From the IMG/VR virus record IMGVR_UViG_2529292919_000025: a stretch of 43,511 nucleotides of DNA, one strand, 5' to 3'. Within the stretch, counting starts at the first letter, position 1, and every line of letters begins with the position of its first letter. The notes under the pieces are model-generated. The model was given only the letters and a program-made list of their open reading frames with translations, ran no database searches and was not told the DNA's origin. Origin of the DNA: a virus. Its lineage: Duplodnaviria > Heunggongvirae > Uroviricota > Caudoviricetes. Below are positions 1 to 31,280 of this stretch, piece after piece. The position numbers and the translations under genes are program-made.

Positions 1-1260
1 ATGCCAAAACTCACAGATATGCAGATCCGCGCATGGATAAAGGCGGGAGACAGATTTGATGGCAAGGCAGACGGCAACGGCCTTTATATTTGCTACCCCA
101 AAAACTACACAGCCCCGTTCTGGCGATTCCGCTATAAGCTCGCAGGAAAGCAGCGGGCTATGGTTATAGGCTCTTACTCCGAACTGTCACTATCAAAAGC
201 CAGAGAAACAGCAAAAGAGCTGTCAGCCAGAGTTGCTCTTGGCTATGACGTAGCAGCAGAGAAACAGGAACGAAAAGCTGAAGCACTGGCAAAAATGGAG
301 GCTGAGAAAAACGCCATGCGTGTTTCAGATCTGGCCTCCGAATACTTCGAGCGCCAGATACTTCCGAGATGGAAACATCCCGATATCCTTCGCCGGAGAA
401 TTGATAAGGATATTAACCCCTGCATTGGGCATATGAAGGTAGAGGACGTTAAGCCACGCCACATTGACGACATGTTGAAAGGTATCGTTGACCGAGGAGC
501 ACCAACGATAGCAACAGATGTATTACGCTGGACACGCCGTATCTTTGACTACGGGATAAAACGCCACGCTCTGGAGATAAACCCTTGTTCAGCGTTTGAA
601 GTATCTGATGCTGGTGGTAAAGAGGTTTCCCGCGACCGTTGGCTAACTCGCGATGAGCTTATCAGGCTATTCGAGGCTATGCGCACCGCAAAAGGATTCA
701 GCCGCCAGAACGAACTGACATTTAAGCTATTGCTGGCACTATGCGTTCGTAAGATGGAGTTATGCGCCGCACGATGGGAAGAGTTTGATTTAGATGGTGC
801 GGTATGGCATTTGCCGGAAGAACGCAGCAAAAACGGAGACCCTATTGATATACCTCTACCTTCCCCAGCCGTTGAATGGTTGAGAGAGCTACACACCTTT
901 TCATGTAATAGCGCATGGGTGCTTCCAGCCAGGAAGATGCAAAACAGAATGATCCCACATATTCAGGAAAGCACTTTGCCCGTAGCACTGGCTAAGGTTC
1001 GCGCCGAAATGCCGGATGTGCCTAATTTCACGATTCACGACTTCCGACGCACCGCACGTACTCATTTAGCAGCGTTGGGTGTTGATCCTGTCGTGGCGGA
1101 ACGATGCCTCAATCATCGCATTAAGGGCGTAGAGGGGATTTATAACCGCCATCAGTATTTTGATGAGCGTAAAGCAGCACTGGCACAGTGGGCTGATCTG
1201 CTGGTGGCACTGGAAAGCGGAAAAGACTACAACGTAACGCCTCTCAGAAGGGCGAACTAA
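1..1260 (+). CDS. int: Tyrosine recombinase, P4-type island integrase
   Basis: 419-aa ORF starting at window base 1; C-terminal catalytic region with HDFRRTARTHL and terminal GIYNRHQY (R..H..R..Y tyrosine-recombinase pattern); N-terminal region typical of P4-family integrases. Confidence 0.85.
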   Translation: MPKLTDMQIRAWIKAGDRFDGKADGNGLYICYPKNYTAPFWRFRYKLAGKQRAMVIGSYSELSLSKARETAKELSARVALGYDVAAEKQERKAEALAKMEAEKNAMRVSDLASEYFERQILPRWKHPDILRRRIDKDINPCIGHMKVEDVKPRHIDDMLKGIVDRGAPTIATDVLRWTRRIFDYGIKRHALEINPCSAFEVSDAGGKEVSRDRWLTRDELIRLFEAMRTAKGFSRQNELTFKLLLALCVRKMELCAARWEEFDLDGAVWHLPEERSKNGDPIDIPLPSPAVEWLRELHTFSCNSAWVLPARKMQNRMIPHIQESTLPVALAKVRAEMPDVPNFTIHDFRRTARTHLAALGVDPVVAERCLNHRIKGVEGIYNRHQYFDERKAALAQWADLLVALESGKDYNVTPLRRAN

Positions 1261-1355
1261 CTGAATAGATTGAGCCTAGCTCGACGGGGCGAAAAGCGGG
1301 AAGCCTTACCGCCTGGCTCAATCACAAAATAAGGCGCAGCGTAAAAGGTGACGCA

Positions 1356-2321
1356 ATGAACGACTCTCATGAAACAACAGTGGTGCATAGAAATTTATGG
1401 CAGGAATCAGGTATTCCACCTTTGGACTACTGCACGATAGAGCGAGCATCAAAATTATTAAATTGTGAAATTGATGATATATGGCATTGGAAAGATAGAC
1501 TACATATAGACTTTTATGTCTATGCTGACTTTCTTGATTTCATTGAATCTGATGCCACCATCCACTTCAAAAAAGATGCTAATTTTATAACTGATTTATT
1601 ACTTATGTACCCAGAAGAAGTAAGGTTTACATTTCCTTTTCTTATTACCAGCGCAAGCAACGAAGTTTATATCCCAGCATCTGAAAGCGGTGCTTATGAG
1701 CTATTTTATGCACATAAACCACTGACAGTTGAAGACAGCGACAATAAAAATGTTTTTGAACAAATTGGCAAAAACTCTTTTATTGTAAGAAAATCAATTG
1801 CATGTGGATTGTTGCGTGTACGCGGTAGAACAACACGACATTATCATTCACAAGAATGTGGAGAACCATATGTGCGACTTGAAGCAACATTTGATTGTGA
1901 TCTATATAAATTCAAAATGCAAAGTTCCCAAATTCACCTGAGTAGCCTGTCAGATAAAAACATTTATATAACAAAGGCTGATTTAGAATACCTTCATGAC
2001 GCAAAGGTTAATGGAAGTTTTGACGCAGCTAAGAGCAAAAAACGATACGAAATGGCGGTAGAACAGGAACTAATACCTGAAATAAAAAATAGCAACCATA
2101 ATGCCGAGAGACATGCTGAAAACAGGGAAAAACTTTTCAAATCTGCAATATATCTTTTGTCAAAGTATCCTGATGAATGCCGTGGCAAAAAGAAAGAAAT
2201 AAGCCCTGAGAAGTGGCGGGATTGCATAGTGGCTCATAAAGACGAAATTCCACCGTTAGCAATCACAAATGAAGATGTGATTTTGAGACACTTACGTGCT
2301 GCCGCCAACGGTAAGGGGTAG
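1356..2321 (+). CDS. Hypothetical protein; AT-rich orphan island cargo gene, no recognisable motif
   Basis: 321-aa ORF, SD-like AAGGTG 5 nt upstream of ATG; visibly AT-rich compared with both flanks; stop codon TAG (2319-2321) abuts the prophage end; its probable terminator is found at 40131-40160 beyond the prophage. Confidence 0.6.
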   Translation: MNDSHETTVVHRNLWQESGIPPLDYCTIERASKLLNCEIDDIWHWKDRLHIDFYVYADFLDFIESDATIHFKKDANFITDLLLMYPEEVRFTFPFLITSASNEVYIPASESGAYELFYAHKPLTVEDSDNKNVFEQIGKNSFIVRKSIACGLLRVRGRTTRHYHSQECGEPYVRLEATFDCDLYKFKMQSSQIHLSSLSDKNIYITKADLEYLHDAKVNGSFDAAKSKKRYEMAVEQELIPEIKNSNHNAERHAENREKLFKSAIYLLSKYPDECRGKKKEISPEKWRDCIVAHKDEIPPLAITNEDVILRHLRAAANGKG

Positions 2322-2324
2322 AGT
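2319..2324. repeat. Left copy of prophage target-site duplication TAGAG(T)
   Basis: TAGAGT at 2319-2324 is identical to 40112-40117 immediately outside the other prophage end; 5-bp Mu-type duplication plus one ambiguous base. Confidence 0.55.
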
Positions 2325-2372
2325 TGATGCGCCGCGCGATAAATGCACTCTATCTTGTGCGATAAATGGCAT
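2325..2372. repeat. Prophage terminal inverted repeat, invertase-side end, with two transposase-binding-like motifs
   Basis: TGATGCGCCGCGCGATAAATGCAC...TGTGCGATAAATGGCA; the CGATAAATG motif occurs twice 23 bp apart; inverted counterpart at 40064-40111. Confidence 0.6.
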
Positions 2373-2402
2373 CCACGCGGCGTTTCATTATTTGAAAAAG
2401 AA

Positions 2403-2975
2403 TTACATTTCAGGTTGCGTTATGACAGTCCCAACAGGGTGGTAGCGGTAGATCGTTGACAGTCCAATATCATAGATAATTGCCAGCCGCTTTCTGTCAT
2501 ACCCTTTCTGGAGCAATCTTGCGATCTGCTCATGCTGCTCCTTCGTCAGTTTCGGGCGACGTCCTCCAACTCTCCCTTGTGCTCGCGCAGCAGCCAGTCC
2601 TGCCAGCGTGCGCTCAACTATCAGTTCACGCTCCATTTCTGCCAGTGCACCCATCATATGAAAAAAGAACCTTCCCATCGGAGTGCTGGTATCGATTGAA
2701 TCCGTCAGACTGCGAAAATTGACACCTTTTGCGCGTAGCTCTTCTGTGAGAGCAATGAGGTGTTTCATTCTTCTACCCAACCGATCCAGCTTCCAGACCA
2801 CCAATGTATCCCCTCTTTTAAGGCACTTTAAAGCGCGTTTCAGGCCTGGTCGTTCCGACTTGGTTCCGCTCATTTTGTCCTCAAAAATCTGTTCACATCC
2901 TGCGCACATTAATGCATTGCGTTGCAAATCTGTGTTTTGGTCATTTGCTGACACACGTATGTAGCCAATCAGCAT
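2403..2975 (-). CDS. Serine-recombinase DNA invertase, Hin/Gin/Pin/Cin family
   Basis: 190 aa; N-terminal resolvase/invertase catalytic motif (IGYIRVS...DxQ, GDTLVVWKLDRLGR) and C-terminal HTH; immediately adjacent to tail-fibre cassettes with hix/gix-like sites. Confidence 0.9.
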   Translation of the reverse strand: MLIGYIRVSANDQNTDLQRNALMCAGCEQIFEDKMSGTKSERPGLKRALKCLKRGDTLVVWKLDRLGRRMKHLIALTEELRAKGVNFRSLTDSIDTSTPMGRFFFHMMGALAEMERELIVERTLAGLAAARAQGRVGGRRPKLTKEQHEQIARLLQKGYDRKRLAIIYDIGLSTIYRYHPVGTVITQPEM

Positions 2976-3029
2976 TAAAAATACTCCCTTTTGAGTGGTT
3001 AAAGTACTGAGATAATGTGGGGAGGATTT

Positions 3030-3055
3030 GAGAGATAAACGTTGGTTTGGGGGAA
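3030..3055. other. hix/gix-like crossover site d (outer site; invertase-proximal half degenerate)
   Basis: GAGAGATAAACG-TT-GGTTTGGGGGAA; right half identical to site c. Confidence 0.55.
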
Positions 3056-3580
3056 GGCTCTGCGTTGCCCGTTGGTGTACCCGTTCCGTGGCCCTCAGCT
3101 ACACCGCCAACGGGCTGGCTGAAATGTAACGGCGCAGCATTTTCTTCTGAAGATTACCCCAAACTGGCACAGGCTTACCCCGCGAATAAATTACCGGATC
3201 TACGGGGTGAATTTATCCGTGGCTGGGATGATGGACGCGGCTTGGATGCTGGGCGTGCCTTGCTAAGTCTTCAGGATGACTCTTTTGAAGCGCACAGGCA
3301 TGAGTCCTTTTTTTATGCGGGTATTTCACGTAATGAAACCCCATTAAAAAATCTTCCAAGTTCAGACGAGATGCTGACTTTAAGTTCCACAACTAATGCC
3401 TTGTCCCCGGACGGTATTGATGCCACCAACTCGTTAATTGGTAATGACGATTACAACTGTCTTATCGAAGGGAATAAAAATAACAAACGAACAGCGACAA
3501 GACTGAGTACCAGTATTGTCGGCACAGCAGAAACACGCCCCCGCAACGTTGCATTCAATTACATCGTAAGAGCCGCATGA
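3047..3580 (+). CDS. Silent tail-fibre C-terminal cassette A (no in-frame ATG; expressed only after inversion)
   Basis: Begins with the shared GEGSALPVGVPVPWPSATPPTGWLKCNGAAFS segment and ends with the shared ETRPRNVAFNYIVRAA; track start is a TTG inside the crossover site. Confidence 0.6.
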   Translation: MGEGSALPVGVPVPWPSATPPTGWLKCNGAAFSSEDYPKLAQAYPANKLPDLRGEFIRGWDDGRGLDAGRALLSLQDDSFEAHRHESFFYAGISRNETPLKNLPSSDEMLTLSSTTNALSPDGIDATNSLIGNDDYNCLIEGNKNNKRTATRLSTSIVGTAETRPRNVAFNYIVRAA

Positions 3581-3599
3581 AAACGTTGGTTTGGGGGAA
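3574..3599. other. hix/gix-like crossover site c
   Basis: CGCATGAAAACG-TT-GGTTTGGGGGAA; exact reverse complement of site b (5135-5160). Confidence 0.6.
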
Positions 3600-4067
3600 G
3601 GCTCTGCACTGCCCGTTGGTGTGCCTGTTCCATGGCCCTCAGCCACACCACCAACGGGCTGGCTGAAATGTAACGGTGCAGCATTTTCTTCTGAAATGTA
3701 CCCCAATCTGGCAAAGGCCTACCCCACCAATAAATTACCGGATTTACGCGGTGAATTTATCCGTGGCTGGGATGATGGGCGAGGAATTGATGCGGCACGC
3801 GCTTTATTGAGCATTCAAAACGGGATGTTGGAAAAACACCGCCATATTGTTGTAGCTAACGATGGATATGACACAAAAGATGAATGGGAGTTGGCTACGA
3901 TTTTCAAAAAAACATATACACAAGGCAGGGGGCTTGATGCCACAAATACAGGAGGGAGTTTGATTCCATCACCAACGCTTCATTCACGAGGAAGTATTGG
4001 TAACACAGGTGGTAGTGAAACCCGCCCCCGCAATATTGCATTTAACTATATCGTGAGGGCGGCTTAG
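3591..4067 (+). CDS. Silent tail-fibre C-terminal cassette B
   Basis: Same conserved N- and C-terminal boundary segments as cassette A, different middle; no ATG start. Confidence 0.6.
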   Translation: MGEGSALPVGVPVPWPSATPPTGWLKCNGAAFSSEMYPNLAKAYPTNKLPDLRGEFIRGWDDGRGIDAARALLSIQNGMLEKHRHIVVANDGYDTKDEWELATIFKKTYTQGRGLDATNTGGSLIPSPTLHSRGSIGNTGGSETRPRNIAFNYIVRAA

Positions 4068-4073
4068 TTATAT

Positions 4074-4685
4074 TCAACTGGCTGCTGCCAGTGGTATTTC
4101 CGGCAAGTTGATATCTGGTACCATGTTTATATCCATTGCGTTCAGCGCGTCTATATAATCCAGCACGGCATTAAGCCGGGTGGTTTCTGCCTGCGTCAAC
4201 TTCCGCCCGGCCTGCAACTTCAACTGAATCAGACTTATGGAAGCCATTGCCGCATCAGCCAGTGACTGGCGCTTGGTTTCTGCCGCTTCTACTGCGGCAC
4301 GATGTTGTGCCTCAGTATCTGTCACCCATTTTTCACCATCCCATTTATCGTATGGTGTTAACGGGGCGATAGTGGTTGTAGTTTTCGGGTAGTCACCCAG
4401 CGCCGTGATTTCTTCGGTGTTTCCCGTGTCAGTGCTATAGACGGTTTCACCACGATGGTCTGGCGCATACTCCCATGAACTTAAATTCTCCGAACGGCGG
4501 ATAGCATAGCCCGCTTTATGTGCGCCCGGGGCATCTAAACAGGAATTTGCCGGAATACCGACACCCACAGCAAGATATTCAGTTGATTCGGAAATATATT
4601 CCCGTGTCTCACCATCATAGTTATAAACGACGATGTTTCCTGCCTGTACGGCAATAAGGTCATCATTTAATATCGCGTTATTCAT
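4074..4685 (-). CDS. Tail-fibre assembly protein (Tfa/U-like chaperone)
   Basis: 203 aa; start ATG overlaps the stop of cassette C (TAATG); typical Tfa-like sequence and position after a tail-fibre C-terminal segment. Confidence 0.75.
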   Translation of the reverse strand: MNNAILNDDLIAVQAGNIVVYNYDGETREYISESTEYLAVGVGIPANSCLDAPGAHKAGYAIRRSENLSSWEYAPDHRGETVYSTDTGNTEEITALGDYPKTTTTIAPLTPYDKWDGEKWVTDTEAQHRAAVEAAETKRQSLADAAMASISLIQLKLQAGRKLTQAETTRLNAVLDYIDALNAMDINMVPDINLPEIPLAAAS

Positions 4686-5143
4686 TATGCGGTTCTCACA
4701 ATATAATTGAAGGCAATATTGCGTGGGCGGTTTTCATTCCCATCTGAGGATTCCGTTCTGTATTGACTGGTAAATCTACCGTTAATTGCACCTTGCCGGA
4801 CGGCGTTATCTGTCGACAACAGACTATCCCCTCTTTTGTCATTTGGCACCAGTACCGTGTTATCCCACGCATCCCATGACCGAATATTATGATAATGACT
4901 TCCTGTTAACCACCCCTGCATGCTTAAGATGCCCCTTCCGGCATCCACCCCGCGCCCATCATCCCAGCCACGGATAAACTCACCGCGTAAATCAGGTAAT
5001 TTTAACGTTGGGTAAACCTTTGCCAGATTTGGGTACATTTCAGAAGAAAATGCTGCACCGTTACATTTCAGCCAGCCCGTTGGTGGTGTGGCTGAGGGCC
5101 ATGGAACAGGCACACCAACGGGCAGTGCAGAGCCTTCCCCCAA
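4685..5143 (-). CDS. Silent tail-fibre C-terminal cassette C (translationally coupled to the assembly gene)
   Basis: Shared N-terminal GEGSALPVG... and C-terminal RPRNIAFNYIVRTA; lies directly downstream of the expressed fibre gene on the same strand. Confidence 0.6.
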   Translation of the reverse strand: MGEGSALPVGVPVPWPSATPPTGWLKCNGAAFSSEMYPNLAKVYPTLKLPDLRGEFIRGWDDGRGVDAGRGILSMQGWLTGSHYHNIRSWDAWDNTVLVPNDKRGDSLLSTDNAVRQGAINGRFTSQYRTESSDGNENRPRNIAFNYIVRTA

Positions 5144-5160
5144 ACCAACGTTTTCATGCG
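5135..5160. other. hix/gix-like crossover site b
   Basis: TTCCCCCAAACC-AA-CGTTTTCATGCG; resembles hixL/gix consensus as I recall it (TTCTTGAAAACCAAGGTTTTTGATAA). Confidence 0.6.
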
Positions 5161-6650
5161 GCTCTTACGATGTAATTAAATGCAACGTTGCGAGGGCGAG
5201 TTTCTGTACCTACATTTCCACTAATTTCACCAAACCGTTTTACATTACGAGAGCTAATGGCTCGTAGTGAGGAAGGCACATTAAGACCGGGTTCGTCCGT
5301 TTTAACTATTCCCCCGTCACCGTATGTAGCCAGTATTCCTGGGTTTACTCCTTCCCGTGCACTTCCTGCGGCGAGTCCGTCCCCTGTCCATAATTCCATA
5401 TAGTGTGCATGGTCCAAAATTGTGTGTGGCTGCCAATTAAGCAAAGCGCGACCAGTATCAATCCCGCGACCGTCATCCCAGCCACGAATAAATTCACCGC
5501 GTAAATCAGGCAATTTATTGGTCGGGTAAGCCTTTGCCAGTTCCGGGTATTCTTCAGCAGAAAAAGCCGCACCGTTGCATTTCAGCCACCCCGTTGGCGG
5601 CGTGGCTGAAGGCCATGGAACGGGCACACCAACGGGCAGCGCCGAGCCTTCCCCTAAACCAAGGTAATTGAGGACTTCTTTTATACTGCCCATAGCGATA
5701 ATAGCGCGACCAATAGCTGTAAGGGTTGTCAGTGCTGCGCGGTCTGCTCCGGTAAAATAAGGCAACCGATCTGCTGCAGTGGCAAGTCCTGCCAGAGCAG
5801 TGAGCGTGGCATCTGCCGGTTGTTTTCCGTTTGCCAGATCGTATGCAGCCTTGACCGCTTTCGGTGTGGCGGCCAGTATTTCAGACGTGCTGTTGATGTC
5901 ACTGCTCAATTGTACGGTGCCTTTTGCCGTCAGCGAGGCAGCAGGCACTCCCGTTATCTGACTCCACGGGTGAGTGTGGCTGACGGGCGCCTTGCCGGCT
6001 GCAAGGTCGTATGCAGCCTTGACCGCCTTCGGTGTGGCGGCCAGTATTTCAGATTGACTGTCCGTGGCGCTGCTCAGTTGTACGGTGCCTTTTGCCGTCA
6101 GTGAAGCCGCAGGCACTCCCGTTATCTGACTCCACGGGTGAGTGTGGCTGGCAGGCGCCTTGCCGGCTGCAAGGTCGTATGCAGCCTTGACCGCCTTCGG
6201 CGTGGCAGCCTCAGTTTCTGATTGACTGTCCGTGGCGCTGCTCAGTTGTACGGTGCCTTTTGCCGTCAGCGAGGCAGCAGGCACTCCCGTTATCTGACTC
6301 CACGGGTGAGTATGGCTGACGGGGGCCTTGCCGGCAGCCAGGTCATATGCAGCCTTGACGGCCTTTGGTGTGGCGGCCAGCGTTTCAGAGGTGCTGTTGG
6401 TGGCACTGCTCAGTTGGGTGAACCCCTTAGCTGTCAGTGTCGCGTCCGGGTGGTTACGGGAACGTACGTGTTCAGCCAGTGACTGTGCGGCTTCCTCCGT
6501 TTTTTTCTTCAGCCATTTCGTCCTGTTTGCCAGTTGCCGGGGGGCTCGATTTGATATCCCGTCTGCACCACCCAGAACCGGATCTGATGTCTCCAGTTGA
6601 TAGATATTTTCTTCCCACTTTTCTGTTTCATTCAGGTTTCCCATAATCAA
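5154..6650 (-). CDS. Tail fibre protein (constant N-terminal part fused to currently expressed cassette D)
   Basis: 498 aa; N-terminal tail-fibre anchor region, 56-aa shaft repeats, then ...NYLGLGEGSALPVG crossover segment and a variable C-terminus ending ETRPRNVAFNYIVRAA. Confidence 0.85.
   Translation of the reverse strand: MIMGNLNETEKWEENIYQLETSDPVLGGADGISNRAPRQLANRTKWLKKKTEEAAQSLAEHVRSRNHPDATLTAKGFTQLSSATNSTSETLAATPKAVKAAYDLAAGKAPVSHTHPWSQITGVPAASLTAKGTVQLSSATDSQSETEAATPKAVKAAYDLAAGKAPASHTHPWSQITGVPAASLTAKGTVQLSSATDSQSEILAATPKAVKAAYDLAAGKAPVSHTHPWSQITGVPAASLTAKGTVQLSSDINSTSEILAATPKAVKAAYDLANGKQPADATLTALAGLATAADRLPYFTGADRAALTTLTAIGRAIIAMGSIKEVLNYLGLGEGSALPVGVPVPWPSATPPTGWLKCNGAAFSAEEYPELAKAYPTNKLPDLRGEFIRGWDDGRGIDTGRALLNWQPHTILDHAHYMELWTGDGLAAGSAREGVNPGILATYGDGGIVKTDEPGLNVPSSLRAISSRNVKRFGEISGNVGTETRPRNVAFNYIVRAA
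5649..5674. other. hix/gix-like crossover site a (inside the expressed fibre gene; fibre-constant-side half degenerate)
   Basis: TTCCCCTAAACC-AA-GGTAATTGAGGA; left half matches site b; encodes the LGLGEG junction. Confidence 0.55.
5811..6443. repeat. Tandem ~168-bp coding repeats (about 3.5 copies) in the tail-fibre shaft
   Basis: Protein repeat TAKGTVQLSSATDSQSE..ATPKAVKAAYDLAAGKAP.SHTHPWSQITGVPAASL recurs; accounts for the repetitive antisense ORFs at 5820-6482. Confidence 0.6.
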
Positions 6651-7225
6651 CTGCTCCCGTGGTTATAACTGCCATCATGGATGGCGGTATTGTTATAGCG
6701 AATGGCCACAGACTGATACTCCAGGCTGGCCAGATGGCAGCGGGCCGGTGCAAATGCAGCCAGCGTCTGACGCAGCATCGCGGCCTGATCGTTAGTAATG
6801 GGCTGTTTCAGAATAACGCGATAAACTGCCCAGGCGGCTGCATCTCCATGAACAAACAGTCCGTTATAGCTGCGATTGCCGTCGTAACTGAGACGACCTG
6901 TGCCTTCAATCAGATCCACTTCACCAAAGCCAAAACGGCGGATAACTTCCCGGATTGACCACGGCGTCCCTTTATACCGGTGCAGTTCGATGGCTGCTTT
7001 TATAAGCATGCGGCGAACATCGTCCGATTCCGCCAGCTCCCAGCCATCGCCAGACAGTGAGAACTGCTCGCCCAGCCATGGCAGCGCGGAACTGTCGACG
7101 ATATCGACGAGAAAGACCATCAGTACGCTCAGGTCGATGTTATCCAGCCGTCCTGCCAGTCTTCCCAGCGTCCTGAGACTGATATCACCCTCAAGCGGTG
7201 GCGGGAGTTGTAATGGCTCAGTCAT
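6647..7225 (-). CDS. Baseplate/tail protein (P2 gpI-like, Mu gp48 position)
   Basis: 192 aa between the baseplate J-like gene and the tail fibre; overlaps both neighbours by 4-8 nt. Confidence 0.6.
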   Translation of the reverse strand: MTEPLQLPPPLEGDISLRTLGRLAGRLDNIDLSVLMVFLVDIVDSSALPWLGEQFSLSGDGWELAESDDVRRMLIKAAIELHRYKGTPWSIREVIRRFGFGEVDLIEGTGRLSYDGNRSYNGLFVHGDAAAWAVYRVILKQPITNDQAAMLRQTLAAFAPARCHLASLEYQSVAIRYNNTAIHDGSYNHGSS

Positions 7226-8321
7226 CAGACACTCCAGTCATGTTAAGAGTGATTGCCGTACAGTTTGCCCATTCGTTTTCTGCCACCACCCGCAGTGCCG
7301 GTGTCACCAGTTCAACCTGGTACACCCCGGAAACGGACAATGCACTGATAATCTGGCTGGGGACAATATCGCGCCCCAGCGTGGCGGCACGTGATGCCAC
7401 CCAGTTCTGTATGGCGCTGTTAGCGGCATCTTTTACAGACCTGGCATCCTGATCACGATAGATCGTAATCCTGGCTTCAATGGTGTAATCCACCTTCACT
7501 GGTGTTTTAGCCCGCACTGTATCAGTGAGTGGCCTGACTTTCTCATCAGAGCAGAAACTCTCTACCAGCGTGAGAACACCGCCGTCCGGCAGACCGGTAC
7601 TGAGCAGCGGATACAGATCTACGGTCCCGGGAACCGGGGAAAGCACAGCAACATCGACAATGTTGGGATGGGCCTGCATGGCATGAAAGCGGTATGCGCC
7701 ACGGCTTCCGGCATTGGTGAATGACTCCGGGGCCAGCCTGATACGCTCCCGGAGCCTGTCATCGTCTTCCTGTTCTGAACCGCCGGAACTGGCCGTCAGA
7801 TTGCTCACCAGCAGGTCGACGTTATCAATCTCATCGAGTAACTGACTGACCTGCGCAGGTTGCCAGCCGTTACCAGCGGTACCGGGTTCGGTACAGGTGG
7901 ACGTGACATTGACCAGCAGCAATCCGGCCTTCAGTACCACATCTGTATCGGTGGCAAAAATAACGCTGTCGGAAGCGCTGACGCGGGTGCCTGCCGGGAT
8001 CAGCACATCAATGGCCAGTGCCTCATCTACGGAGAACTGGAGCGTGGTAGTGGCAGGCTGCGCGGCAAGACGGTATACACCGACCAGTTCACCGAGGTAA
8101 TCAATCATCGGCTCACGGGCAAAGGCGACCAGATTCTGCTTTGCTGCCTCCTGTACCGCAACCCTGACCAGCATTTCGCGATAGGCCCACAGATCAATCA
8201 GCAGACGTTCTGCCTGTGCCGGGTACAGCGTTTTGCCGGTATCCGCTTCATACTTCGCAATCATTTCTGCCGTGATTTTGTCGGCATCGCGTTCAATAAA
8301 ATCGGGTTCTGTCAGCGCCAT
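7218..8321 (-). CDS. Baseplate J-like protein (Mu gp47 / P2 gpJ-like)
   Basis: 367 aa, gene order W-J-I-fibre; sequence character of baseplate J family. Confidence 0.7.
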   Translation of the reverse strand: MALTEPDFIERDADKITAEMIAKYEADTGKTLYPAQAERLLIDLWAYREMLVRVAVQEAAKQNLVAFAREPMIDYLGELVGVYRLAAQPATTTLQFSVDEALAIDVLIPAGTRVSASDSVIFATDTDVVLKAGLLLVNVTSTCTEPGTAGNGWQPAQVSQLLDEIDNVDLLVSNLTASSGGSEQEDDDRLRERIRLAPESFTNAGSRGAYRFHAMQAHPNIVDVAVLSPVPGTVDLYPLLSTGLPDGGVLTLVESFCSDEKVRPLTDTVRAKTPVKVDYTIEARITIYRDQDARSVKDAANSAIQNWVASRAATLGRDIVPSQIISALSVSGVYQVELVTPALRVVAENEWANCTAITLNMTGVSDD

Positions 8322-8659
8322 AGCAGCTCCTGAGTCCGGGTCTGTCCGTCTGAGCCTTTCCAGCTCACCCGGAGCGTAAGATGTTCGCCGTCGACGGCGG
8401 GTTTAACTGACATAAGCTGGCAGCGGGGCTCCCAGCGCCGGATGGCATCGACGGATTCGCGCACCACATGCGGAATGGCCCGGTCTACAGGCCAGTCGAT
8501 ATAAAGATGCAGATTGCTGCCGAACTCCGGGCGATGCGGGTCGCTGCCGCGGGGAGTCCGCAGGATAATTTGAATCGCCTGCCGGATATCATCCAGCCCC
8601 CGGACAATTTCGCCGGGAGCCTGCAGGGTCGGTTGCCAGAATACTGAGGTTGTTTTCAT
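8312..8659 (-). CDS. Baseplate wedge protein (GPW/gp25-like, Mu gp46 position)
   Basis: 115 aa, size and position typical of GPW; GC-rich hairpin overlaps its start. Confidence 0.65.
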   Translation of the reverse strand: MKTTSVFWQPTLQAPGEIVRGLDDIRQAIQIILRTPRGSDPHRPEFGSNLHLYIDWPVDRAIPHVVRESVDAIRRWEPRCQLMSVKPAVDGEHLTLRVSWKGSDGQTRTQELLWR

Positions 8660-8713
8660 GGGGGCAGTATTGCCCCCGTGCGGGAACGCTGATATTAAAG
8701 GCGTTTAAAAAGC

Positions 8714-9310
8714 TCAGTGGGAGTGGTGGCTGGAGTTTTCGCCATCAGACAACATACTGCCCGTGGCATGGGCATTCCCTTTAATCTCGATATTGCCATG
8801 GATGGTCGCGGTAACACCTTCACCACCAGAACCCGCCATGCCTCCTTCGTAAATCAGCTTACCCCTGACACGCAGATCTCCGGTAAGTTCGGTTTCCGGT
8901 GCGTCAATCGTGGCTTTCTGTGTTTTCAATACCACATCAGCACCACACTCAATGACAATATGCTCAATGCCGCCCCGGATGGTCAGAGTGTGCGTCTTCC
9001 GGTTGTAGCTGTACTCTGCACCATCAGCAAACCGGGTTCCCCGGATATTTTTGTCACTGAACGGTGGTTTATCGACGTCTGAATACACCGCGCCCAGAAT
9101 AACACCATCCTCGCCGTTGGCATCGAGCAGCACCTCAACCTGCTCCCCCACGTCAGGGAGCCAGTAATCTTTGTTATCCTGGGTATTGCGCTGCAGCACG
9201 TTAAGCCAGTTTGTGCGCAGGTTATCGCATTCAGGCAGACGAACGCGGGCCTGAACCCTGTCGGCATCAACGGCACTGACCGTACCGACCTGACGAGTGA
9301 CACCAGTCAT
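8714..9310 (-). CDS. Baseplate spike/assembly protein V-like (Mu gp45 position)
   Basis: 198 aa, gpV-like N-terminal OB-like region and Gly-rich C-terminus. Confidence 0.65.
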   Translation of the reverse strand: MTGVTRQVGTVSAVDADRVQARVRLPECDNLRTNWLNVLQRNTQDNKDYWLPDVGEQVEVLLDANGEDGVILGAVYSDVDKPPFSDKNIRGTRFADGAEYSYNRKTHTLTIRGGIEHIVIECGADVVLKTQKATIDAPETELTGDLRVRGKLIYEGGMAGSGGEGVTATIHGNIEIKGNAHATGSMLSDGENSSHHSH

Positions 9311-10461
9311 TTTTTCTTCTCCTTAATCACCGTCGATGTACTGCCATCCGGGTGATAAACCGTGAGTTTCTGAGTTTTTTGTTTTTTCCCTCTTGTGACT
9401 GGCCCCCGTGCCACTTCCAGCTCTGTGGTGTAGCCGCTGTTACGGTCAAACGCATGGCGGGCAGTGGTTATGAGCCATGGCCCGGATAACTGCCCAAAAC
9501 CCACCAGTTCAATTTTGTTGCCTGCTGTCAGTTGAGGTGTTCCCGTCAGCGTCAGGGAGCCGTTCTGCTGGTATTCGTTATGTCTGGCCAGTGCTGAATC
9601 CGCTTTAATCCGGGCACTGTCCGGGTCGCTGACGCGGCTGTTAACTTGAAGTGAGTCAGCGCTGGTAACCTTACCACCTTTGAGCTTTTTGTCGCTTTCA
9701 CGGGTACCACCATCAGCTTCGTAGACGATCAGTTTTTTACTGCTGCTTTTCTGGTGTTTTACCTTTGCAGATTTATAGACCCGGTTGATGGTGTCACGCA
9801 GGGAAAAGCGGGCCACATCCTGCGGTTTTAACTGCCTGACCGGCTCCTGACTGCGCAGTGTGGCCAGATGAGAAAAAATCAGCTGGTCACTGACCACTTT
9901 CACTGCATAACCATACTCGCTGGCCAGCCGGCGCAGAAAACCCACGTCGGTTTCAGCATACTGGGTCACCCGGTCGATTCTGATGGACTCAATGCTGCCC
10001 ACCAGTTTCAGTCGGTGCTTTCTGGCAATCCGCCCCGCAACAGCTTCCAGCGTGGTGTTCTCAAAACCACGACTGGTTTTAGTCCGCAGGGCACTGTTAA
10101 CCGAGGTGGCCACCCCACGGATAGAAACAACGGAAGCGGGCGAACTCACTTCGATCTCGTCTATAGAGAACGTACCGCAGGACAGCAGCTTCTCGCCCTG
10201 ATAGCCCATTTTCAGCGTCAGCGTGTCACCCTTGCCCGGATACCATTTATCCAGCCAGCGGCCATCGGTGTCGTCCAGCTCCACCTCAATGGTATCGGAC
10301 TCATTTTTGATGTTATCGCTCCAGGTCACACGGGTGACATAAGGCGCGATATCAGAGGTGATGTTTTTCTGCAGATACCACAAAGTGAACACCGGTGTCA
10401 GCACATCGCTGACGCCGGTTAACGCTGATGTGACTTGCGCAGTGCTGTTTATCTCAGCCAT
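9307..10461 (-). CDS. Baseplate hub / tail protein D-like (P2 gpD-like, Mu gp44 position)
   Basis: 384 aa downstream of tape measure in the tail module. Confidence 0.65.
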   Translation of the reverse strand: MAEINSTAQVTSALTGVSDVLTPVFTLWYLQKNITSDIAPYVTRVTWSDNIKNESDTIEVELDDTDGRWLDKWYPGKGDTLTLKMGYQGEKLLSCGTFSIDEIEVSSPASVVSIRGVATSVNSALRTKTSRGFENTTLEAVAGRIARKHRLKLVGSIESIRIDRVTQYAETDVGFLRRLASEYGYAVKVVSDQLIFSHLATLRSQEPVRQLKPQDVARFSLRDTINRVYKSAKVKHQKSSSKKLIVYEADGGTRESDKKLKGGKVTSADSLQVNSRVSDPDSARIKADSALARHNEYQQNGSLTLTGTPQLTAGNKIELVGFGQLSGPWLITTARHAFDRNSGYTTELEVARGPVTRGKKQKTQKLTVYHPDGSTSTVIKEKKK

Positions 10462-10664
10462 GGGGCAATATCCTCTTCTGTACGGGCTTCTTCAGCCTCA
10501 ATCACCGGGATCAGTAACAACAGCCCGGAGGGCAGCACCGGCGTGATGGCCACGTGCGGATTGGCGGCAATAATCCGGGGATAGCCCAGCGGGTCACCGT
10601 AGTACTGCCATGCCAGCGAATCCCAGCGCTCTCCGTCACGGGTAACATGTTCAAGAAACATCAC
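10449..10664 (-). CDS. Tail protein X-like (LysM-like small tail protein)
   Basis: 71 aa with ...YYGDP...IIAANP... pattern reminiscent of P2 gpX; overlaps both neighbours. Confidence 0.5.
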   Translation of the reverse strand: MMFLEHVTRDGERWDSLAWQYYGDPLGYPRIIAANPHVAITPVLPSGLLLLIPVIEAEEARTEEDIAPWLR

Positions 10665-11545
10665 ACACTCCTCGTCAGTATTCTGGCGGCCATTGCACTT
10701 AATCCCGGAGACATGCGGTTGAATGCTGTGCCGGCGGCGTTAAGCTGCCCGGAAACGGTATCCAGAGCACCTGCAATATTTCTTTTGTCCACACCACTCA
10801 GCGCAGACTGTGCCTGCTGTACATACGTGACTGCTTCGCTGGCTGTTCTGGCCAGACTGATGGCATCGGGCATGGATTCAGAGAGTGCGTTAAACGCCGG
10901 AACACTTTTCCCCAGAGCCCCGGAGATATTACCCAGTCCGCTCATCAGCCCCGGCACACGGGTCAGTGCGACAACGGGGTTATCCTTCATTTTCTGTGTC
11001 ACCCGAACGGCGCTGATAGTGGTCTGGAGTACAGACTGCGCCTGTTTCGCATAGTTGACGCCGTTGCGGATGAACTGCGCCACCCCTGAAGGTGAAGGTA
11101 TGGCACCGGAGACCGCCCCGACACCCGGGAGCTTCGTGCGTATTGCCGGTGGTTGCAGAGGATTTTTCGGGTCACCGGTGTATTCCCGGAGAGACACGGT
11201 GGCACTGACAGCCAGCACGTTGCCGGTACTGTCAGTCTGCTCGCTGGTTGCAGTCACATCGGTAATCACGAACCAGCCGCGATAGTCACCGTTGCCGAAG
11301 ACCAGCGCCAGTGCCTGATGGGCTTTCATGGCTGTTCGCAGTCTCGCCAGCTCCACATCGGGTACACAATAATGCTGATGGAAAACCAGAGTTATCTGGA
11401 TTTCGTCCAGCCTGTCGCCGACGAACTGCAGGCCAGGCTTACCCCCGATGCGGGCATGCTCCGCATAATCGACGCCGAACGTGGCCTCGAAGCCGTCCCA
11501 GTAGGTAATCAGCTCAAACTCAATATCACCCAGTACGGCAAACAT
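10661..11545 (-). CDS. Tail protein (P2 gpU-like N-terminus; Mu gp43 DNA-circulation position)
   Basis: 294 aa immediately after tape measure; N-terminal ~110 aa gpU-like, Ser/Ala-rich C-terminus. Confidence 0.55.
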   Translation of the reverse strand: MFAVLGDIEFELITYWDGFEATFGVDYAEHARIGGKPGLQFVGDRLDEIQITLVFHQHYCVPDVELARLRTAMKAHQALALVFGNGDYRGWFVITDVTATSEQTDSTGNVLAVSATVSLREYTGDPKNPLQPPAIRTKLPGVGAVSGAIPSPSGVAQFIRNGVNYAKQAQSVLQTTISAVRVTQKMKDNPVVALTRVPGLMSGLGNISGALGKSVPAFNALSESMPDAISLARTASEAVTYVQQAQSALSGVDKRNIAGALDTVSGQLNAAGTAFNRMSPGLSAMAARILTRSV

Positions 11546-14496
11546 CAGCGGTACTCCTTACGTTGTTTCTGAGCCAGCAGACGCTCCAGCATTTTTTCCA
11601 GCTCATGCAGGCTCATATTCAGGGCGCCAGTCAGTCCGGCAGGCGCTGTGGTTTCCCTGCCATTGAGGAAAAACTGAGGATTAAAGCTGACCTGGATACC
11701 ACCAGACGTTCCACCGCCGGTTGCAGCTGCACCACGGCCTGAATATCCGGCAGCCATGATTTCAGGCGAGGGGATACGGGGAACATCCGGTGTCATCTCA
11801 TTTGCCAGACGTTGCCCTGGTAAAATCGATGCCCGGGTGGAGAGCGGGATAGCGGGCATGGAAGACAAACTATTGATTACGGCTCCGATCGCATTTTTAG
11901 CAGACGACATAAACCCGTTGATATCGGGCAACGGCATACTGAAGCGAACACCTGAAGTGTTATCCCGTATTTCTGGCCCCTGAATGCTCACGGGCATTCT
12001 GGGGAGCAGTTCACTGGCCATTCGCTGCCCGGCCAGAGCTGCAAGCGGAGTGGTCCGCTGCAGGCCAATGGCGGCCCCCTGCGCGATATTGTCACCAAAG
12101 CCCATAAACACGCGGCTCGGCGAATGAATACCCAGCTTTTCACTGAACCAGCCACTGATGCTGTCACCCATTCCGGTTACACTGGATTTGAGCGACTCCC
12201 ATTTGTTTTTGATACCGTTAATCAGACCGTCGACAAGATGGCCACCGAAGTCGGTGAACTTTGCCGGCAGATCAACACCAAGATATTTCAGCGCAGCTGC
12301 AAAGGCTTTATAGAGCAGACCTGCCGGCGACCAGTTAATCAGCAGCTTACCAGTTCCCGCGATACCGCCGTTAAAGGCTTCCTGAATGTCAGCCCAGCAC
12401 TGTTTAAACCAGCTACTGATGCTGTCACCCATTCCGGTTACACTGGATTTGAGCGACCCCCATTTGTTTTTGATACCGTTAATCAGACCGTCGATAAGAT
12501 GGCCACCGAAGTCGGTGAACTTTGCCGGCAGAGCAACGCCGAAATATTTCAGCGCAGCCGCAAAGGCTTTATAGAGCAGGCCTGCCGGCGACCAGTTAAT
12601 CAGCAACTTACCAATTCCCACAATGCCGCCGTTAAAGGCTTCCTGAATGTCTGCCCAGCGCTGTTTAAACCAGCCACTGACTGCCCCCCAGTTGCGGTAG
12701 ATAAGGTAAGCTGCTGCCGCGACAGCGGTGATAACGAGACCGATGGGATTCATCATCAGCGCACGTCCAATCCAGAGAACAGCACGTCCGGCGAGCATAA
12801 TTCCGCGAACCAGCCCCCCGGAGAGCACGCCACTCAGTGTTCTGGCTCCTCTGGCGACGGCGCTAAATCCGGTCACCAGCCAGCGGAGCTTACCGCCTTG
12901 CCCCAGTGCGAGCGACAGACGAAGCCAGTTGGCCCGAAGTAAAACAGCATTTTTCCAGACACTTACAAAGGGGGAAATAAGGAGATTCAGCCCCAGTTTG
13001 AGACCAACAGTCGCTATCTTAATCGCAAGGAGCGCACTGATGAGCTTAAAAGCCCCACTGACAAATTGCGGGTGAGTCGCTACCCAGTGTTTTGCCCCCT
13101 GAATGAGTGGAAGCAGTTCCTGAGTCAAAGAAATAAAAGATGGAGCTAATTGATCGCCCAGCGTAATTGCCAGATCGCGACTGCTGACCATAAGTGTTTT
13201 AGTGGCTTCAAGGGGGGATTTCAGCCGCTGATCATAAGCACTGGCAAGCAAATCGTTATCCGCAGCCCTGAGAGCACCGGCACGGATCTCTCGATATCTG
13301 TCCATGTTGGCCAGCATCGGGCGGATAAATGCCATGACCTGCATATCCGCGAACATATCGCCCAGACCAAAGTTTTTCGCCAGAGCCTGAAGTGCCTCAT
13401 CTCTTGCCGTATCATTCTTTATTTTCATGGCTGATTTGAAGCCGGCCAGCGCTTCGGGGCTTTTGGCATTGAGGTAACGTTCTATAACACTCAACATCCC
13501 TTCAATCGGAGAGATCCCCGCAGCTTTATAACTCGCAATAGATCCCTGCAAATCAATACCCAGATCAGCAAACTGTTTCTGAGTATCGCGGGCAAAAATT
13601 TTGGTAAGAAAGTTTTTAAAATTATTGGCTGCTTCGTCGGTGGAACCTGCACCGATTTTTGCTATCTGGAGACTGGCCCCGATTTCAGCAACAGCCTCTT
13701 TTCCACTGGCAATACCCGCCATCATTGGGGCCAGGGACTGCATCCACTTGACCTGATCCGGAATTTCAAATGACCCCTGGTCACCGGCATAAGCCATAAT
13801 ATTCTGAACGGCACCAAAATCTCTGGCCGCACCTTTCAGGGAGTTTTGCCAGACTGCGGCCACTTTTGCCCAGTCCTGAGCAGACGTGCGTGTTGCCGTT
13901 GCCGCGCGGGCAATATCCGGCATCAGAAAACCGATATCTGACACATTATCAATATTGTCGCTGATGAGTGAACCCACCGCCTCCTGCAACTCATCCTGAT
14001 ACTGATTGTATTTAAGCGCCCAGCCTTTTATCTGTCCGGCAAGTCCATCCCGCGTTTTATTGTCATATTTTGCGGTGATCGACATATCAATCATTTTGTC
14101 CTGAAAAGACATGGACTGCTGAACGGCAGGGGAAACCGTATGATAAACAGTCTGTGCCATGCCATACGCTTCAATCCCCTGACCATACAGCGCCATGCGG
14201 TTAGCTTTCAGCGCATCACTGGTAGCGGATGCCGCTGACAGACGGCGCTGCTGGCGCTCAATTTGCTCCATGGTGCGGCTTACCCGCAGCAGCTCGCTGT
14301 TGAGATGCTGCATCCGGGAAGAACCCAGTTGACCATAACGTTCTGTTGCACGGGTTAAAGCGTTCTGACGTTCCTGCAGGCGGCGTGAGGTATCGCTCAG
14401 GGAATCAAGCGCACGGCGGGTACCGCTCATTGCAGAACGGAATGTGCTACCAATCATCCCGCCGATAACAACGCCGACTGAAAACTGTCCCGACAT
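11545..14496 (-). CDS. Tail tape measure protein
   Basis: 983 aa, alpha-helical and Gly/Ala-rich, after the tail chaperone pair; contains an internal 88-aa tandem duplication. Confidence 0.85.
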   Translation of the reverse strand: MSGQFSVGVVIGGMIGSTFRSAMSGTRRALDSLSDTSRRLQERQNALTRATERYGQLGSSRMQHLNSELLRVSRTMEQIERQQRRLSAASATSDALKANRMALYGQGIEAYGMAQTVYHTVSPAVQQSMSFQDKMIDMSITAKYDNKTRDGLAGQIKGWALKYNQYQDELQEAVGSLISDNIDNVSDIGFLMPDIARAATATRTSAQDWAKVAAVWQNSLKGAARDFGAVQNIMAYAGDQGSFEIPDQVKWMQSLAPMMAGIASGKEAVAEIGASLQIAKIGAGSTDEAANNFKNFLTKIFARDTQKQFADLGIDLQGSIASYKAAGISPIEGMLSVIERYLNAKSPEALAGFKSAMKIKNDTARDEALQALAKNFGLGDMFADMQVMAFIRPMLANMDRYREIRAGALRAADNDLLASAYDQRLKSPLEATKTLMVSSRDLAITLGDQLAPSFISLTQELLPLIQGAKHWVATHPQFVSGAFKLISALLAIKIATVGLKLGLNLLISPFVSVWKNAVLLRANWLRLSLALGQGGKLRWLVTGFSAVARGARTLSGVLSGGLVRGIMLAGRAVLWIGRALMMNPIGLVITAVAAAAYLIYRNWGAVSGWFKQRWADIQEAFNGGIVGIGKLLINWSPAGLLYKAFAAALKYFGVALPAKFTDFGGHLIDGLINGIKNKWGSLKSSVTGMGDSISSWFKQCWADIQEAFNGGIAGTGKLLINWSPAGLLYKAFAAALKYLGVDLPAKFTDFGGHLVDGLINGIKNKWESLKSSVTGMGDSISGWFSEKLGIHSPSRVFMGFGDNIAQGAAIGLQRTTPLAALAGQRMASELLPRMPVSIQGPEIRDNTSGVRFSMPLPDINGFMSSAKNAIGAVINSLSSMPAIPLSTRASILPGQRLANEMTPDVPRIPSPEIMAAGYSGRGAAATGGGTSGGIQVSFNPQFFLNGRETTAPAGLTGALNMSLHELEKMLERLLAQKQRKEYR
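12151..12678. repeat. Tandem duplication (2 x ~264 bp) inside the tape measure gene
   Basis: Two near-identical adjacent DNA copies encoding SGWFKQ(R/C)WADIQEAFNGGI...GMGDSIS; boundaries approximate. Confidence 0.65.
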
Positions 14497-14571
14497 AGTG
14501 GTTAACCTCCGGGGAAGGTGAAAAGACGTGAGGGGATAACGCAGAACAGCCGCTACTGGCGGCTGTCTGTA

Positions 14572-14829
14572 CTATGATTTGTCGCCGTACTCGCTTTTGA
14601 TTTGCTCTTCAGCCTGCTCCAGCCACATCTCCAGATCGTCAGTATCGAGGGCATCAATCTCCCCCGGCTGAAACCGGAACCATCTCGCCAGCAGCCCCTG
14701 CGCCTGCGTCAGCGCCTTTGTCGCTCTCACCCATCCCCGTGATGAGCTGAAATCGTTTCTGTAACTGCAGGTAATCAGCCAGGTCCATATTGTCGAGATC
14801 TTCCGGGAGAAGACCAGTACTGCGGGCAA
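14572..14829 (-). CDS. Tail assembly chaperone frameshift extension (gpE'/GT-like), downstream frame
   Basis: ORF in the +1 frame relative to 14654-14989, overlapping it by 176 nt and extending 27 codons further towards the tape measure. Confidence 0.45.
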   Translation of the reverse strand: MPAVLVFSRKISTIWTWLITCSYRNDFSSSRGWVRATKALTQAQGLLARWFRFQPGEIDALDTDDLEMWLEQAEEQIKSEYGDKS

Positions 14830-14989
14830 TCAGCGGTTCGTCCCAGTCTGCCGGGTTTTTGCTGATTTTGCGCACCTGCTTCAGGTCTTTTACCGTCAGG
14901 CGTTTCAGTTCAACCTGCTCAATTCTGGTGCCTGCAGCAGTGGTGAAGGGATAAGACAATTTAAAAGTATCGGATGGGGTCTGTGACAT
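14654..14989 (-). CDS. Tail assembly chaperone (gpE/G-like), upstream frame
   Basis: 111 aa directly upstream of the tape measure; acidic C-terminus; overlapped by a second ORF in another frame. Confidence 0.6.
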   Translation of the reverse strand: MSQTPSDTFKLSYPFTTAAGTRIEQVELKRLTVKDLKQVRKISKNPADWDEPLIARSTGLLPEDLDNMDLADYLQLQKRFQLITGMGESDKGADAGAGAAGEMVPVSAGGD

Positions 14990-15086
14990 GATTGTGCTCC
15001 TGTGTAAGTTCAGGGCAGTATGTCGGGAGAAGCGCGTGACGGATATTAAAGGAGATTAAGAAGAAGGGGCCGGAGCCCCTGTGATG

Positions 15087-15368
15087 TCAGCAAGTGCGAA
15101 ACCCCTTGCAGTTACGCAGGAAAGCGATGAGAAGCGTCTTTCCCTCAGATTTGCCGATGCCGGAGAACCAGTGGTCGGGAGGCTCCCATGCTTCAATCAA
15201 ATCCGCCAGTTTGCGGGCCTTTGAACGTGTGCAGTCAATCGGGTCATTGGTTTTACGGGTATTAAAAAGGGTTTCCACCCCCGGAATATCAAGGAGGGTA
15301 AACCACGTACCATTTGACATGCCCAGTGCCGCACATCGTCCTCCTTTATCCGTCAGTTCAACACTCAC
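15087..15368 (-). CDS. Hypothetical protein between tail tube and chaperone
   Basis: 93-aa ORF starting 3 nt after the tube stop, on the late strand; no motif. Confidence 0.4.
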   Translation of the reverse strand: MSVELTDKGGRCAALGMSNGTWFTLLDIPGVETLFNTRKTNDPIDCTRSKARKLADLIEAWEPPDHWFSGIGKSEGKTLLIAFLRNCKGFRTC

Positions 15369-15370
15369 CG

Positions 15371-15892
15371 TCAGCCCCCGATATTGATACGGTAGTCAGT
15401 CAGTTGATCAACACCGCCGACCCGGAAGATGTTGGCCAGATAGTCCAGTTGCAGCAGCTCTTCACCATCCAGTACCTGTCTGATATACGTGCAGGTGAAG
15501 CTACTGGAGAACTCGGCGTTCTCGTGCTGTTTGAACGTCCCCAGCGGGTTCTTCTTGAACATAATCGTCAGGAAGGTGACCAGCGGGATTTCGTCAATCA
15601 GCCCCTGCGAGCTGTAGCGCTGGACGCTGGAACGACACTGCAGTGCCAGCGACCTGTACGGGTTCGCGGCAGACAGCATCGCATCGCGGTAAAAGCTGTT
15701 CCATTTGATTTCGCCTTCCAGTTTGTCAAAACCAGCCGGGAGTTCCACCTTACCCACCATCCCCAGCGCCTTGTGTTCCTGCATAATCATGGAGACATCG
15801 GGGAGTTTAACTTCCTCAGCCCGTCCCAGCAGGTTAGTACCATCCAGATAGATGTTGGCATTCGTGATGCGGTTTATCTCAATCTTTGACAT
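15371..15892 (-). CDS. Tail tube protein (FII-like / Mu M position)
   Basis: 173 aa immediately downstream of the sheath, 1-nt overlap. Confidence 0.75.
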   Translation of the reverse strand: MSKIEINRITNANIYLDGTNLLGRAEEVKLPDVSMIMQEHKALGMVGKVELPAGFDKLEGEIKWNSFYRDAMLSAANPYRSLALQCRSSVQRYSSQGLIDEIPLVTFLTIMFKKNPLGTFKQHENAEFSSSFTCTYIRQVLDGEELLQLDYLANIFRVGGVDQLTDYRINIGG

Positions 15893-18470: not shown

Positions 18471-18471
18471 G

Positions 18472-18810: not shown

Positions 18811-18819
18811 AACGCCTCC

Positions 18820-19773: not shown

Positions 19774-19787
19774 GCTCTCTCCTTAAA

Positions 19788-21576: not shown

Positions 21577-21578
21577 TG

Positions 21579-28022: not shown

Positions 28023-28024
28023 GA

Positions 28025-30783: not shown

Positions 30784-30790
30784 AACAAAA

Positions 30791-31256: not shown

Positions 31257-31280
31257 AAAAGTGAATCTCTATCTTGATAT

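Follow-up and report, generated by a model that had tools for sequence, protein, structure and literature searches.

AlpA is both an excisionase and a regulator, and the int-alpA RNA motif takes its name from its place between int and alpA. In the Gram-positive PICIs (SaPIs) the helix-turn-helix proteins Stl/Rpr are encoded between int and the excision/regulation gene, and the diversity of Stl reflects recognition of different helper-phage proteins (PMC6092414). Gram-negative PICIs differ in being driven by an activator, AlpA, and neither a repressor nor a helper sensor is known for them, alpA being switched on by an unidentified helper signal (PMC6092414). A second group of comparable systems comprises the accessory or "immune" regions of PICIs and the P4-like int-psu hotspot, which encode uncharacterised proteins that are missed by DefenseFinder and PADLOC (PMC11364771; PMC9122126). 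In the part of PMC11364771 that treats their placement (after Fillol-Salom 2022), the immune genes of PICIs lie at the integrase (5') end or at the 3' end.

We analysed a viral sequence record of 43,511 nucleotides (IMG/VR IMGVR_UViG_2529292919_000025; the whole stretch is referred to as the window), in which an uncharacterised gene, here called gene X, lies between the integrase gene of a satellite and alpA. Gene X resembles stl/rpr in this position, in the similar size of the product (approximately 250-320 aa for Stl/Rpr), in the N-terminal helix-turn-helix DNA-binding domain, which is predicted for gene X, and in the extreme sequence diversity between islands; the comparison is one of position, size and domain, not of sequence or fold. 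The two differ in that Stl/Rpr are encoded divergently from the operon that they repress, with intergenic operators, whereas gene X is co-directional with alpA and has no identified operator, and in that the family of gene X conserves its C-terminus and varies the DNA-binding part. With the PICI immune regions and the int-psu hotspot the locus shares a variable, AT-rich segment beside the integrase which is flanked by conserved backbone and exchanged between near-identical elements. Those hotspots, however, hold unrelated systems of many sizes, whereas the slot between int and alpA holds mostly one family of uniform length with conserved ends, and some pairs of its alleles have their recombination breakpoint within the coding sequence, near aa 255. 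Compared with the MerR/excisionase/AlpA (HTH_17) proteins, gene X has no MerR-type dimerisation helix or effector-binding domain, and its remaining 260 aa are unrelated to either family. The int-alpA RNA (Rfam RF02996) is matched at full length and above threshold in the 95-nt spacer that follows int, but here, as in two related islands (L014 and L007), gene X or its allele intervenes between the RNA and alpA.

The island and the expression signals of gene X

Once the Mu-like prophage and the IS66-family element (Table 1) are left out, what remains of the window aligns at 99.9% identity along 2.64 kb with E. coli islands that are uninterrupted and have the order int - gene X - terminator - alpA. 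This is the ancestral order proposed in the initial annotation, which also called gene X an orphan, a label that did not hold (see below). Positions 1261-2324 are 100% identical to many complete E. coli chromosomes, in which the gene X protein (WP_001000004.1) is annotated as a hypothetical protein. The order in intact relatives is yicC - int - gene X - terminator - alpA-type HTH - hypothetical - antA/B antirepressor - DUF4222 - ash/icd. Further downstream of ash/icd, these islands, whose sequence in this segment is identical, encode a primase of the Toprim/DUF927 type or of the P4 family. The window itself begins at int, which in the uninterrupted relatives is integrated downstream of yicC; yicC lies directly 5' of int in the E. 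coli, Salmonella and Pantoea relatives. A preprint from the Williams laboratory mentions reference PICIs with yicC as their integration site (bioRxiv 10.1101/2022.07.18.500453). The leftmost gene is int, followed by alpA and, further along the same strand, by a primase gene (int and alpA in the window, the primase in its relatives); this layout is that of a PICI, and by its gene order and content the island carrying gene X is a Gram-negative PICI-type satellite.

C4 antisense RNA and isrK are P4/P1-type immunity RNAs. The Bro/ash zone, which lies beyond the end of the window, contains a C4 antisense RNA in six related islands (L003 8006-8231, L009 8607-8834, L011 7953-8168, L014 6074-6262, L015 5923-6150 and L020 8903-8990) and isrK in five of the six (not in L020).

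Table 1. Positions of the features discussed, numbered from the first letter of the window
Feature	Position	Strand	Details
int, P4-type tyrosine integrase of the satellite	1..1260	+	419 aa; Pfam Arm-DNA-bind_3, Phage_int_M, Phage_integrase
int-alpA RNA motif (Rfam RF02996)	1269..1335	+	Inside the 95-nt spacer between int and gene X; 60.6 bits by cmscan (gathering score 35.8)
Shine-Dalgarno AAGGTG	1345..1350	+	5 nt 5' of the gene X ATG; read off the sequence
Gene X ORF	1356..2321	+	ATG start, 321 aa; 100% match to WP_001000004.1; intact
N-terminal winged helix-turn-helix of gene X (aa 20-57)	1413..1526	+	MerR/excisionase/AlpA-like; predicted structure
Hypervariable centre of gene X (aa 58-245)	1527..2090	+	Beta-rich then helical in the model; unalignable between allele types
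Conserved C-terminal helical domain of gene X (aa 246-321)	2091..2318	+	24 invariant columns among 38 homologues
Target-site duplication TAGAG(T), left copy	2319..2324		Includes the gene X stop TAG; from walk against uninterrupted island L002
Transposable Mu-like prophage	2325..40112		Ends TGATG...AATCA; at the gene X stop codon; junctions from walk against L002
Target-site duplication TAGAG(T), right copy	40113..40118		From walk against L002
Displaced intrinsic terminator of gene X	40131..40164	+	10-bp stem AGGCACAGTA/TACTGTGCCT plus T-run; terminator scan on the uninterrupted island
Conserved hairpin CCCGTAAC-N23-GTTACGGG	40187..40225	+	Buries the alpA Shine-Dalgarno; kept in E. coli, Salmonella and Pantoea islands
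IS66-family element	40236..42936	-	At the alpA start codon; 8-bp duplication GCATGAAC at 40228-40235 and 42937-42944; transposase ORFs present
alpA	42939..43142	+	67 aa, ORF intact; Pfam Phage_AlpA, HTH_17

Two statements of the initial annotation, that gene X has a good ribosome-binding site of its own and that it is AT-rich relative to its surroundings, were confirmed. The former is the AAGGTG of Table 1; as to the latter, the GC content of gene X is 36.9% (GC3 29.2%) against 49.8% for int (GC3 48.6%), 50.5% for alpA and 54.5% for the prophage. The segment matching the int-alpA RNA folds at -32.4 kcal/mol (z -3.0), and the motif is found also 5' of the alleles in E. coli C8 and in Salmonella; in the window, as in L014 and L007, it directly precedes gene X or its allele rather than alpA. 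A promoter scan found no sigma-70-like site in the 95-nt spacer, several alleles in other islands start only 11-18 nt after int, and a clean terminator follows gene X, which together suggest that gene X is probably co-transcribed with int.

The Mu-like prophage, the IS elements and alpA

A walk against the uninterrupted island showed the window to be colinear with it through 2324 (...GGGGTAGAGT) and again after the second TAGAGT. The target-site duplication is 5 or 6 bp long, as one T is ambiguous: it may be read as TAGAG with a phage end TTGATG, or as TAGAGT with canonical TG...CA ends. Because the duplication contains the TAG stop codon, gene X is intact and only its terminator was moved, 37.8 kb away. 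The initial annotation had named gene X as the exact target of the prophage, and this is correct in so far as the insertion lies at the stop codon, but the gene was neither disrupted nor inactivated and its protein is full length.

The prophage is Mu-like in mechanism, and among its genes are those for an rve transposase, an AAA_22 MuB-like ATPase, Mor, a Dam methylase and a Gin-like invertase. In the late-gene half (window positions 2325-22000), 84% of the sequence matches phage PhiKM at 98.6% identity. The early genes (transposase, MuB-like and Mor; 29929-39951) point to the 40112 end and are encoded on the other strand from the late genes, unlike those of Mu. The Gin-like invertase (2403-2975) adjoins the tail-fibre region, the whole segment spanning 2403-6650. 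This region contains four copies of a junction of approximately 240-290 nt (protein motif GEGSALPVGVPVPWPSATPPTGWLKCNGAAFS), two direct and two inverted, and the inverted-repeat pairs are 84-91% complementary, so that from its sequence the region beside the invertase looks like a multi-cassette invertible host-range segment.

The palindrome 3' of gene X was considered as an operator for the gene X protein and rejected, as it is conserved between alleles with differing winged helices; more simply, it is a terminator inherited with the backbone. Upstream of alpA, the conserved hairpin, whose folding z-scores range from -2.4 to -4.6, may serve alpA as an element of translational control or as a site for protein binding. 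Its spacer varies from N17 to N23 across islands (L002 13132-13170, with equivalents in L007, L009, L003 and L014), and in L020 a different stem (CCCCC/GGGGG) occupies the same position. A LexA-box reading of TTGT/ATGT-N8-ACAG 5' of alpA was also rejected, since the critical CTG is lost and the spacing differs in this island; induction of alpA is SOS-independent (PMC6092414).

The 8-bp duplication made by the IS66-family element (GCATGAAC) duplicates the alpA ATG, and the element cuts alpA off from its own leader and promoter. A further, IS21-family element begins at 43210 (window 43210-43511) and interrupts the next island gene after alpA. Prophage, IS66 and IS21-family elements together make three mobile elements within approximately 900 bp of island backbone. 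As the IS66 element severs alpA from its leader and the IS21-family element interrupts the gene that follows, this copy of the island is probably immobile.

Alleles of the int-alpA slot and distribution of the family

The initial annotation regarded the integrase-adjacent slot as a variable hotspot, and a survey of related integrase-alpA islands did find several alleles within near-identical (98-99%) flanks. Int and the 95-nt spacer of E. coli C8 are 99.3% identical to the window up to the start codon, and identity, at 98%, resumes 47 nt before alpA and continues through it; in the slot between lies a different allele, WP_000735991, of 281 aa, which is a distant relative (hhalign probability 98.3%). 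For other islands the breakpoint is within the gene, near aa 255, and the conserved C-terminus is joined there to a different head and centre. What is swapped between islands with 98-99% identical flanks is thus either the entire allele or the N-terminal two-thirds of it. The integrase was found in 320 of 5426 complete E. coli genomes, and at least four occupants of the slot were counted among these (the window allele of 321 aa in 76, the P0034 allele of 316 aa in 41, the C8/042 allele of 281 aa in 37 and an unrelated 216-aa protein, WP_001059729, in 111), the typing covering all but approximately 55 of the 320 islands. Three of the four counted occupants belong to the gene X family, and one or other of their alleles is present in at least 154 of the 5426 genomes. 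Salmonella, Klebsiella, Enterobacter, Pantoea and Pectobacterium have related alleles. The slot is thus variable, as had been proposed, but it appears to be filled mostly by one family and not by mixed cargo.

The C-termini of the 216-aa protein and of YfjH from K-12 CP4-57 looked similar by eye, but hhalign and hmmsearch gave no support for this. The yfjH gene lies between intA and alpA in CP4-57, on the opposite strand, and is likewise AT-rich (36.8% GC); in EcCICFT073, judged from the gene numbering, alpA appears directly after int (PMC6092414). In every island examined the occupant of the slot has a low GC content (30-42%), including where it stands between an int of 57% and a following gene of 62% GC (L021 5001-6143); the AT-richness of the slot is persistent and tied to position.

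Gene X is not an orphan. A word-indexed search gave 48 homologues across the Enterobacterales, from E. coli, Salmonella, Enterobacter, Cedecea, Buttiauxella, Pectobacterium, Klebsiella, Citrobacter, Pantoea, Serratia and Rosenbergiella, and a profile search of 1.84 billion cluster representatives gave 600 clusters at 50% identity with E<=1e-3 (166 with E<=1e-10); the members are 260-380 aa long in nearly all of the 150 clusters listed, and the exact gene X protein is present on at least 1000 contigs. We examined 24 genomic contexts, with members ranging from identical down to approximately 17-20% identity to gene X and with differing att sites and primase types. A P4-type (Arm-DNA-bind_3) integrase gene lies directly 5' of the family gene, on the same strand, in every one of them, an AlpA/HTH_17 gene lies directly 3' in 22, and a primase usually comes after. 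No member was found in 50,697 phage genomes. The one full-length plasmid match examined, a 21.8-kb circular Klebsiella record, has the gene order of an excised satellite. This record (L024; CP031371.2, pKpvST101_4), filed as a non-mobilizable plasmid, reads family member - AlpA - antirepressor - DUF4222, and on this order it is probably a circularised satellite and not a plasmid. In Enterobacter (L011-L013) a satellite with a family member is embedded in a prophage, immediately behind the prophage's terminase gene and its portal-like and Mu_F-like head genes, and a Bro-N gene, not alpA, lies 3' of the family gene. The fixed position of the family was seen also in an island embedded in a prophage after a Mu_F-like head gene, and this matches the configuration of helper-embedded satellites described previously (PMC10111431).

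From these comparisons gene X is one allele of a large, uncharacterised, satellite-restricted family within an int -> X -> alpA module, and the reading of it as a lone, foreign cargo gene is not supported, as the same family is found in the same position and orientation in three of the four counted occupants and in all 24 contexts. Since the slot is held mainly by one family of uniform size with conserved ends that is never found outside the int-alpA module, the pattern fits a diversifying specificity component of the module better than a hotspot for mixed cargo. The same comparisons make it very improbable that gene X is a silenced, decaying remnant of horizontally acquired DNA with no current function. 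Its low GC content would be consistent with xenogeneic silencing, and the island in the window is already crippled by the prophage, IS66 and IS21-family elements, but the ORF and its three-part architecture are kept across the 600 clusters of similar length, 24 columns of the C-terminus are invariant, and the exact protein is present on at least 1000 contigs.

The persistent position beside int also bears on whether gene X is an accessory of recombination, acting in directionality or target selection with its winged helix on att DNA and its C-terminus on the integrase. The excisionase/AlpA-like fold that is predicted for it would suit such a role, the gene is always directly 3' of int (often 11-18 nt away), and the integrase clade is known for repeated switching of att sites (bioRxiv 10.1101/2022.07.18.500453). 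However, integrases that are 98-99% identical and occupy the same yicC site are found with no fewer than three very different alleles and with one unrelated protein, so the allele does not track the target site and a target-site specificity factor in its simple form was rejected. A protein of 321 aa with a hypervariable centre is moreover unlike known directionality factors, and the role of excisionase and regulator is already filled by AlpA, which leaves a recombination accessory improbable.

Architecture of the gene X protein and its possible function

The gene X protein gave nothing significant against Pfam, NCBIfam, PHROG and PDB sequences; hits to Pfam DUF6137 (E 0.04) and DUF1140 (E 0.17) were below threshold and were discarded, and a literature search found no papers naming WP_001000004, WP_000735991 or WP_001059729. 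The absence of a recognisable motif stated in the initial annotation therefore stands for the sequence libraries, but not for the predicted structure, which shows an N-terminal winged helix of the MerR/excisionase type with the strand-helix-turn-helix-wing fold. At the sequence level this domain has no match to Pfam HTH_17, MerR or Phage_AlpA in gene X, one of 145 diverse family members reaches HTH_17 at E 0.005, and hhalign against AlpA gave E 0.0017 with a probability of 15%. The centre and the C-terminus were modelled with moderate confidence (pLDDT 50-88); structural comparison found no fold match for either, and the C-terminal domain has no match in Pfam and PDB.

The three parts of the protein differ greatly in conservation, identity between allele types being 63-89% in the C-terminus, 21-34% in the winged helix and 5-14% in the centre. 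The C-terminus carries the motif ERHAxNREKLFKSAIYLLSKYPDECRG..KEISPEKWRDCI..H..EIPPL.ITNEDVILKHLR and, to judge from its 24 invariant columns among 38 homologues, is under purifying selection. Across the 145 members only A31, D41 and G151 are near-invariant, and nothing resembling a catalytic motif is found among these residues. A distant member, P0165 (434 aa; L023 205-1509), has two tandem copies of the conserved C-terminal domain, and this duplication suggests that the domain is an independent module.

The initial annotation had put gene X forward as a candidate single-gene defence. Profile and structure searches found no known defence family: comparison with the PADLOC-DB v2 HMMs gave no credible match, a hit to PDC-S31 (E 0.002, aa 183-266) being judged to be due to chance since no more than 2 of 38 members, and 1 of 145, show it; no Pfam or PADLOC family emerged among the 145, and domain searches of the protein and its family found no effector, toxin, nuclease, NTPase or transmembrane domain.

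As the protein combines a head predicted to bind DNA with a hypervariable body and a conserved tail, and shows no catalytic motif, we propose a binding-type factor. Our tentative reading, drawn from sequence and predicted structure, is that gene X may encode a non-enzymatic, phage-facing specificity factor of the satellite which acts in regulation or interference. The protein would bind rather than catalyse; its fast-evolving winged helix and centre would recognise a phage component, either DNA or protein, and the conserved C-terminus would couple this recognition to a conserved partner of the island or host (Int, AlpA, the primase or a host factor). It would thereby serve the dealings of the satellite with its helper, by sensing the helper or by altering the expression of helper or satellite genes, in a role analogous to that of Stl/Rpr or interference proteins, and protection against competing phages could be a consequence of this and not the primary function. 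We lean towards a satellite-helper role because the family is locked to the integration/regulation module and is never seen elsewhere; its size, its uniform length, its absence from phage genomes, the domain-wise pattern of identity and the replacement of alleles also speak for it. Against it stands the fact that the family is not universal, 111 of the 320 islands carrying the unrelated 216-aa protein. A repressor like Stl is disfavoured in particular, as gene X is co-directional with alpA with a terminator between them, and as alleles whose winged helices are 23% identical share a gene X-alpA intergenic region that is approximately 79% identical, which speaks against a simple pairing of repressor and operator at the promoter of alpA.

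That gene X is instead a stand-alone anti-phage defence or abortive-infection cargo, guarding the host and the helper from competing phages, is a serious rival reading, though on balance rather unlikely. Persistent AT-richness and the exchange of cassettes are just as characteristic of defence genes carried as cargo: the slot is multi-allelic within near-identical islands and its occupants are AT-rich even beside neighbours of 57-62% GC. According to the part of PMC11364771 cited above, immune systems are found at one end of PICIs, 5' or 3', and a non-enzymatic, binding-type PICI immunity exists in the Tai proteins (PMC11364771). Gene X is also probably expressed with int from the quiescent island, as its transcriptional signals suggest. 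The defence searches, with no credible PADLOC match and none of the domains looked for, point the other way, as does confinement to the int-alpA module in 24 of 24 contexts, which is unlike the context-hopping of typical defence genes, and so does a slot held mostly by one homologous family in place of mixed cargo.

A bolder form of the phage-facing specificity factor, which we consider doubtful though conceivable, is that the family could be the missing phage-sensing component of Gram-negative PICI-type satellites, with a swappable winged helix and centre that would recognise the helper or a competitor and a C-terminus that would relay this to AlpA or Int or trigger exclusion. Even if gene X were inert, the "orphan cargo" label would be corrected and the int-alpA slot would be seen not to be a general cargo hotspot. 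How Gram-negative PICIs sense their helpers is a question of the field (PMC6092414) on which a satellite-restricted family in the regulatory module bears. If the sensor reading is true, it would explain both how these satellites detect phages and why alleles are exchanged between otherwise identical islands, and in either version, as a regulator that senses the helper or as a new single-gene defence that binds DNA, the family would be described for the first time. Its place in the regulatory module, its restriction to satellites, its three-part architecture and its allele swapping make it a concrete candidate for helper sensing or for an immunity of a new, binding type.
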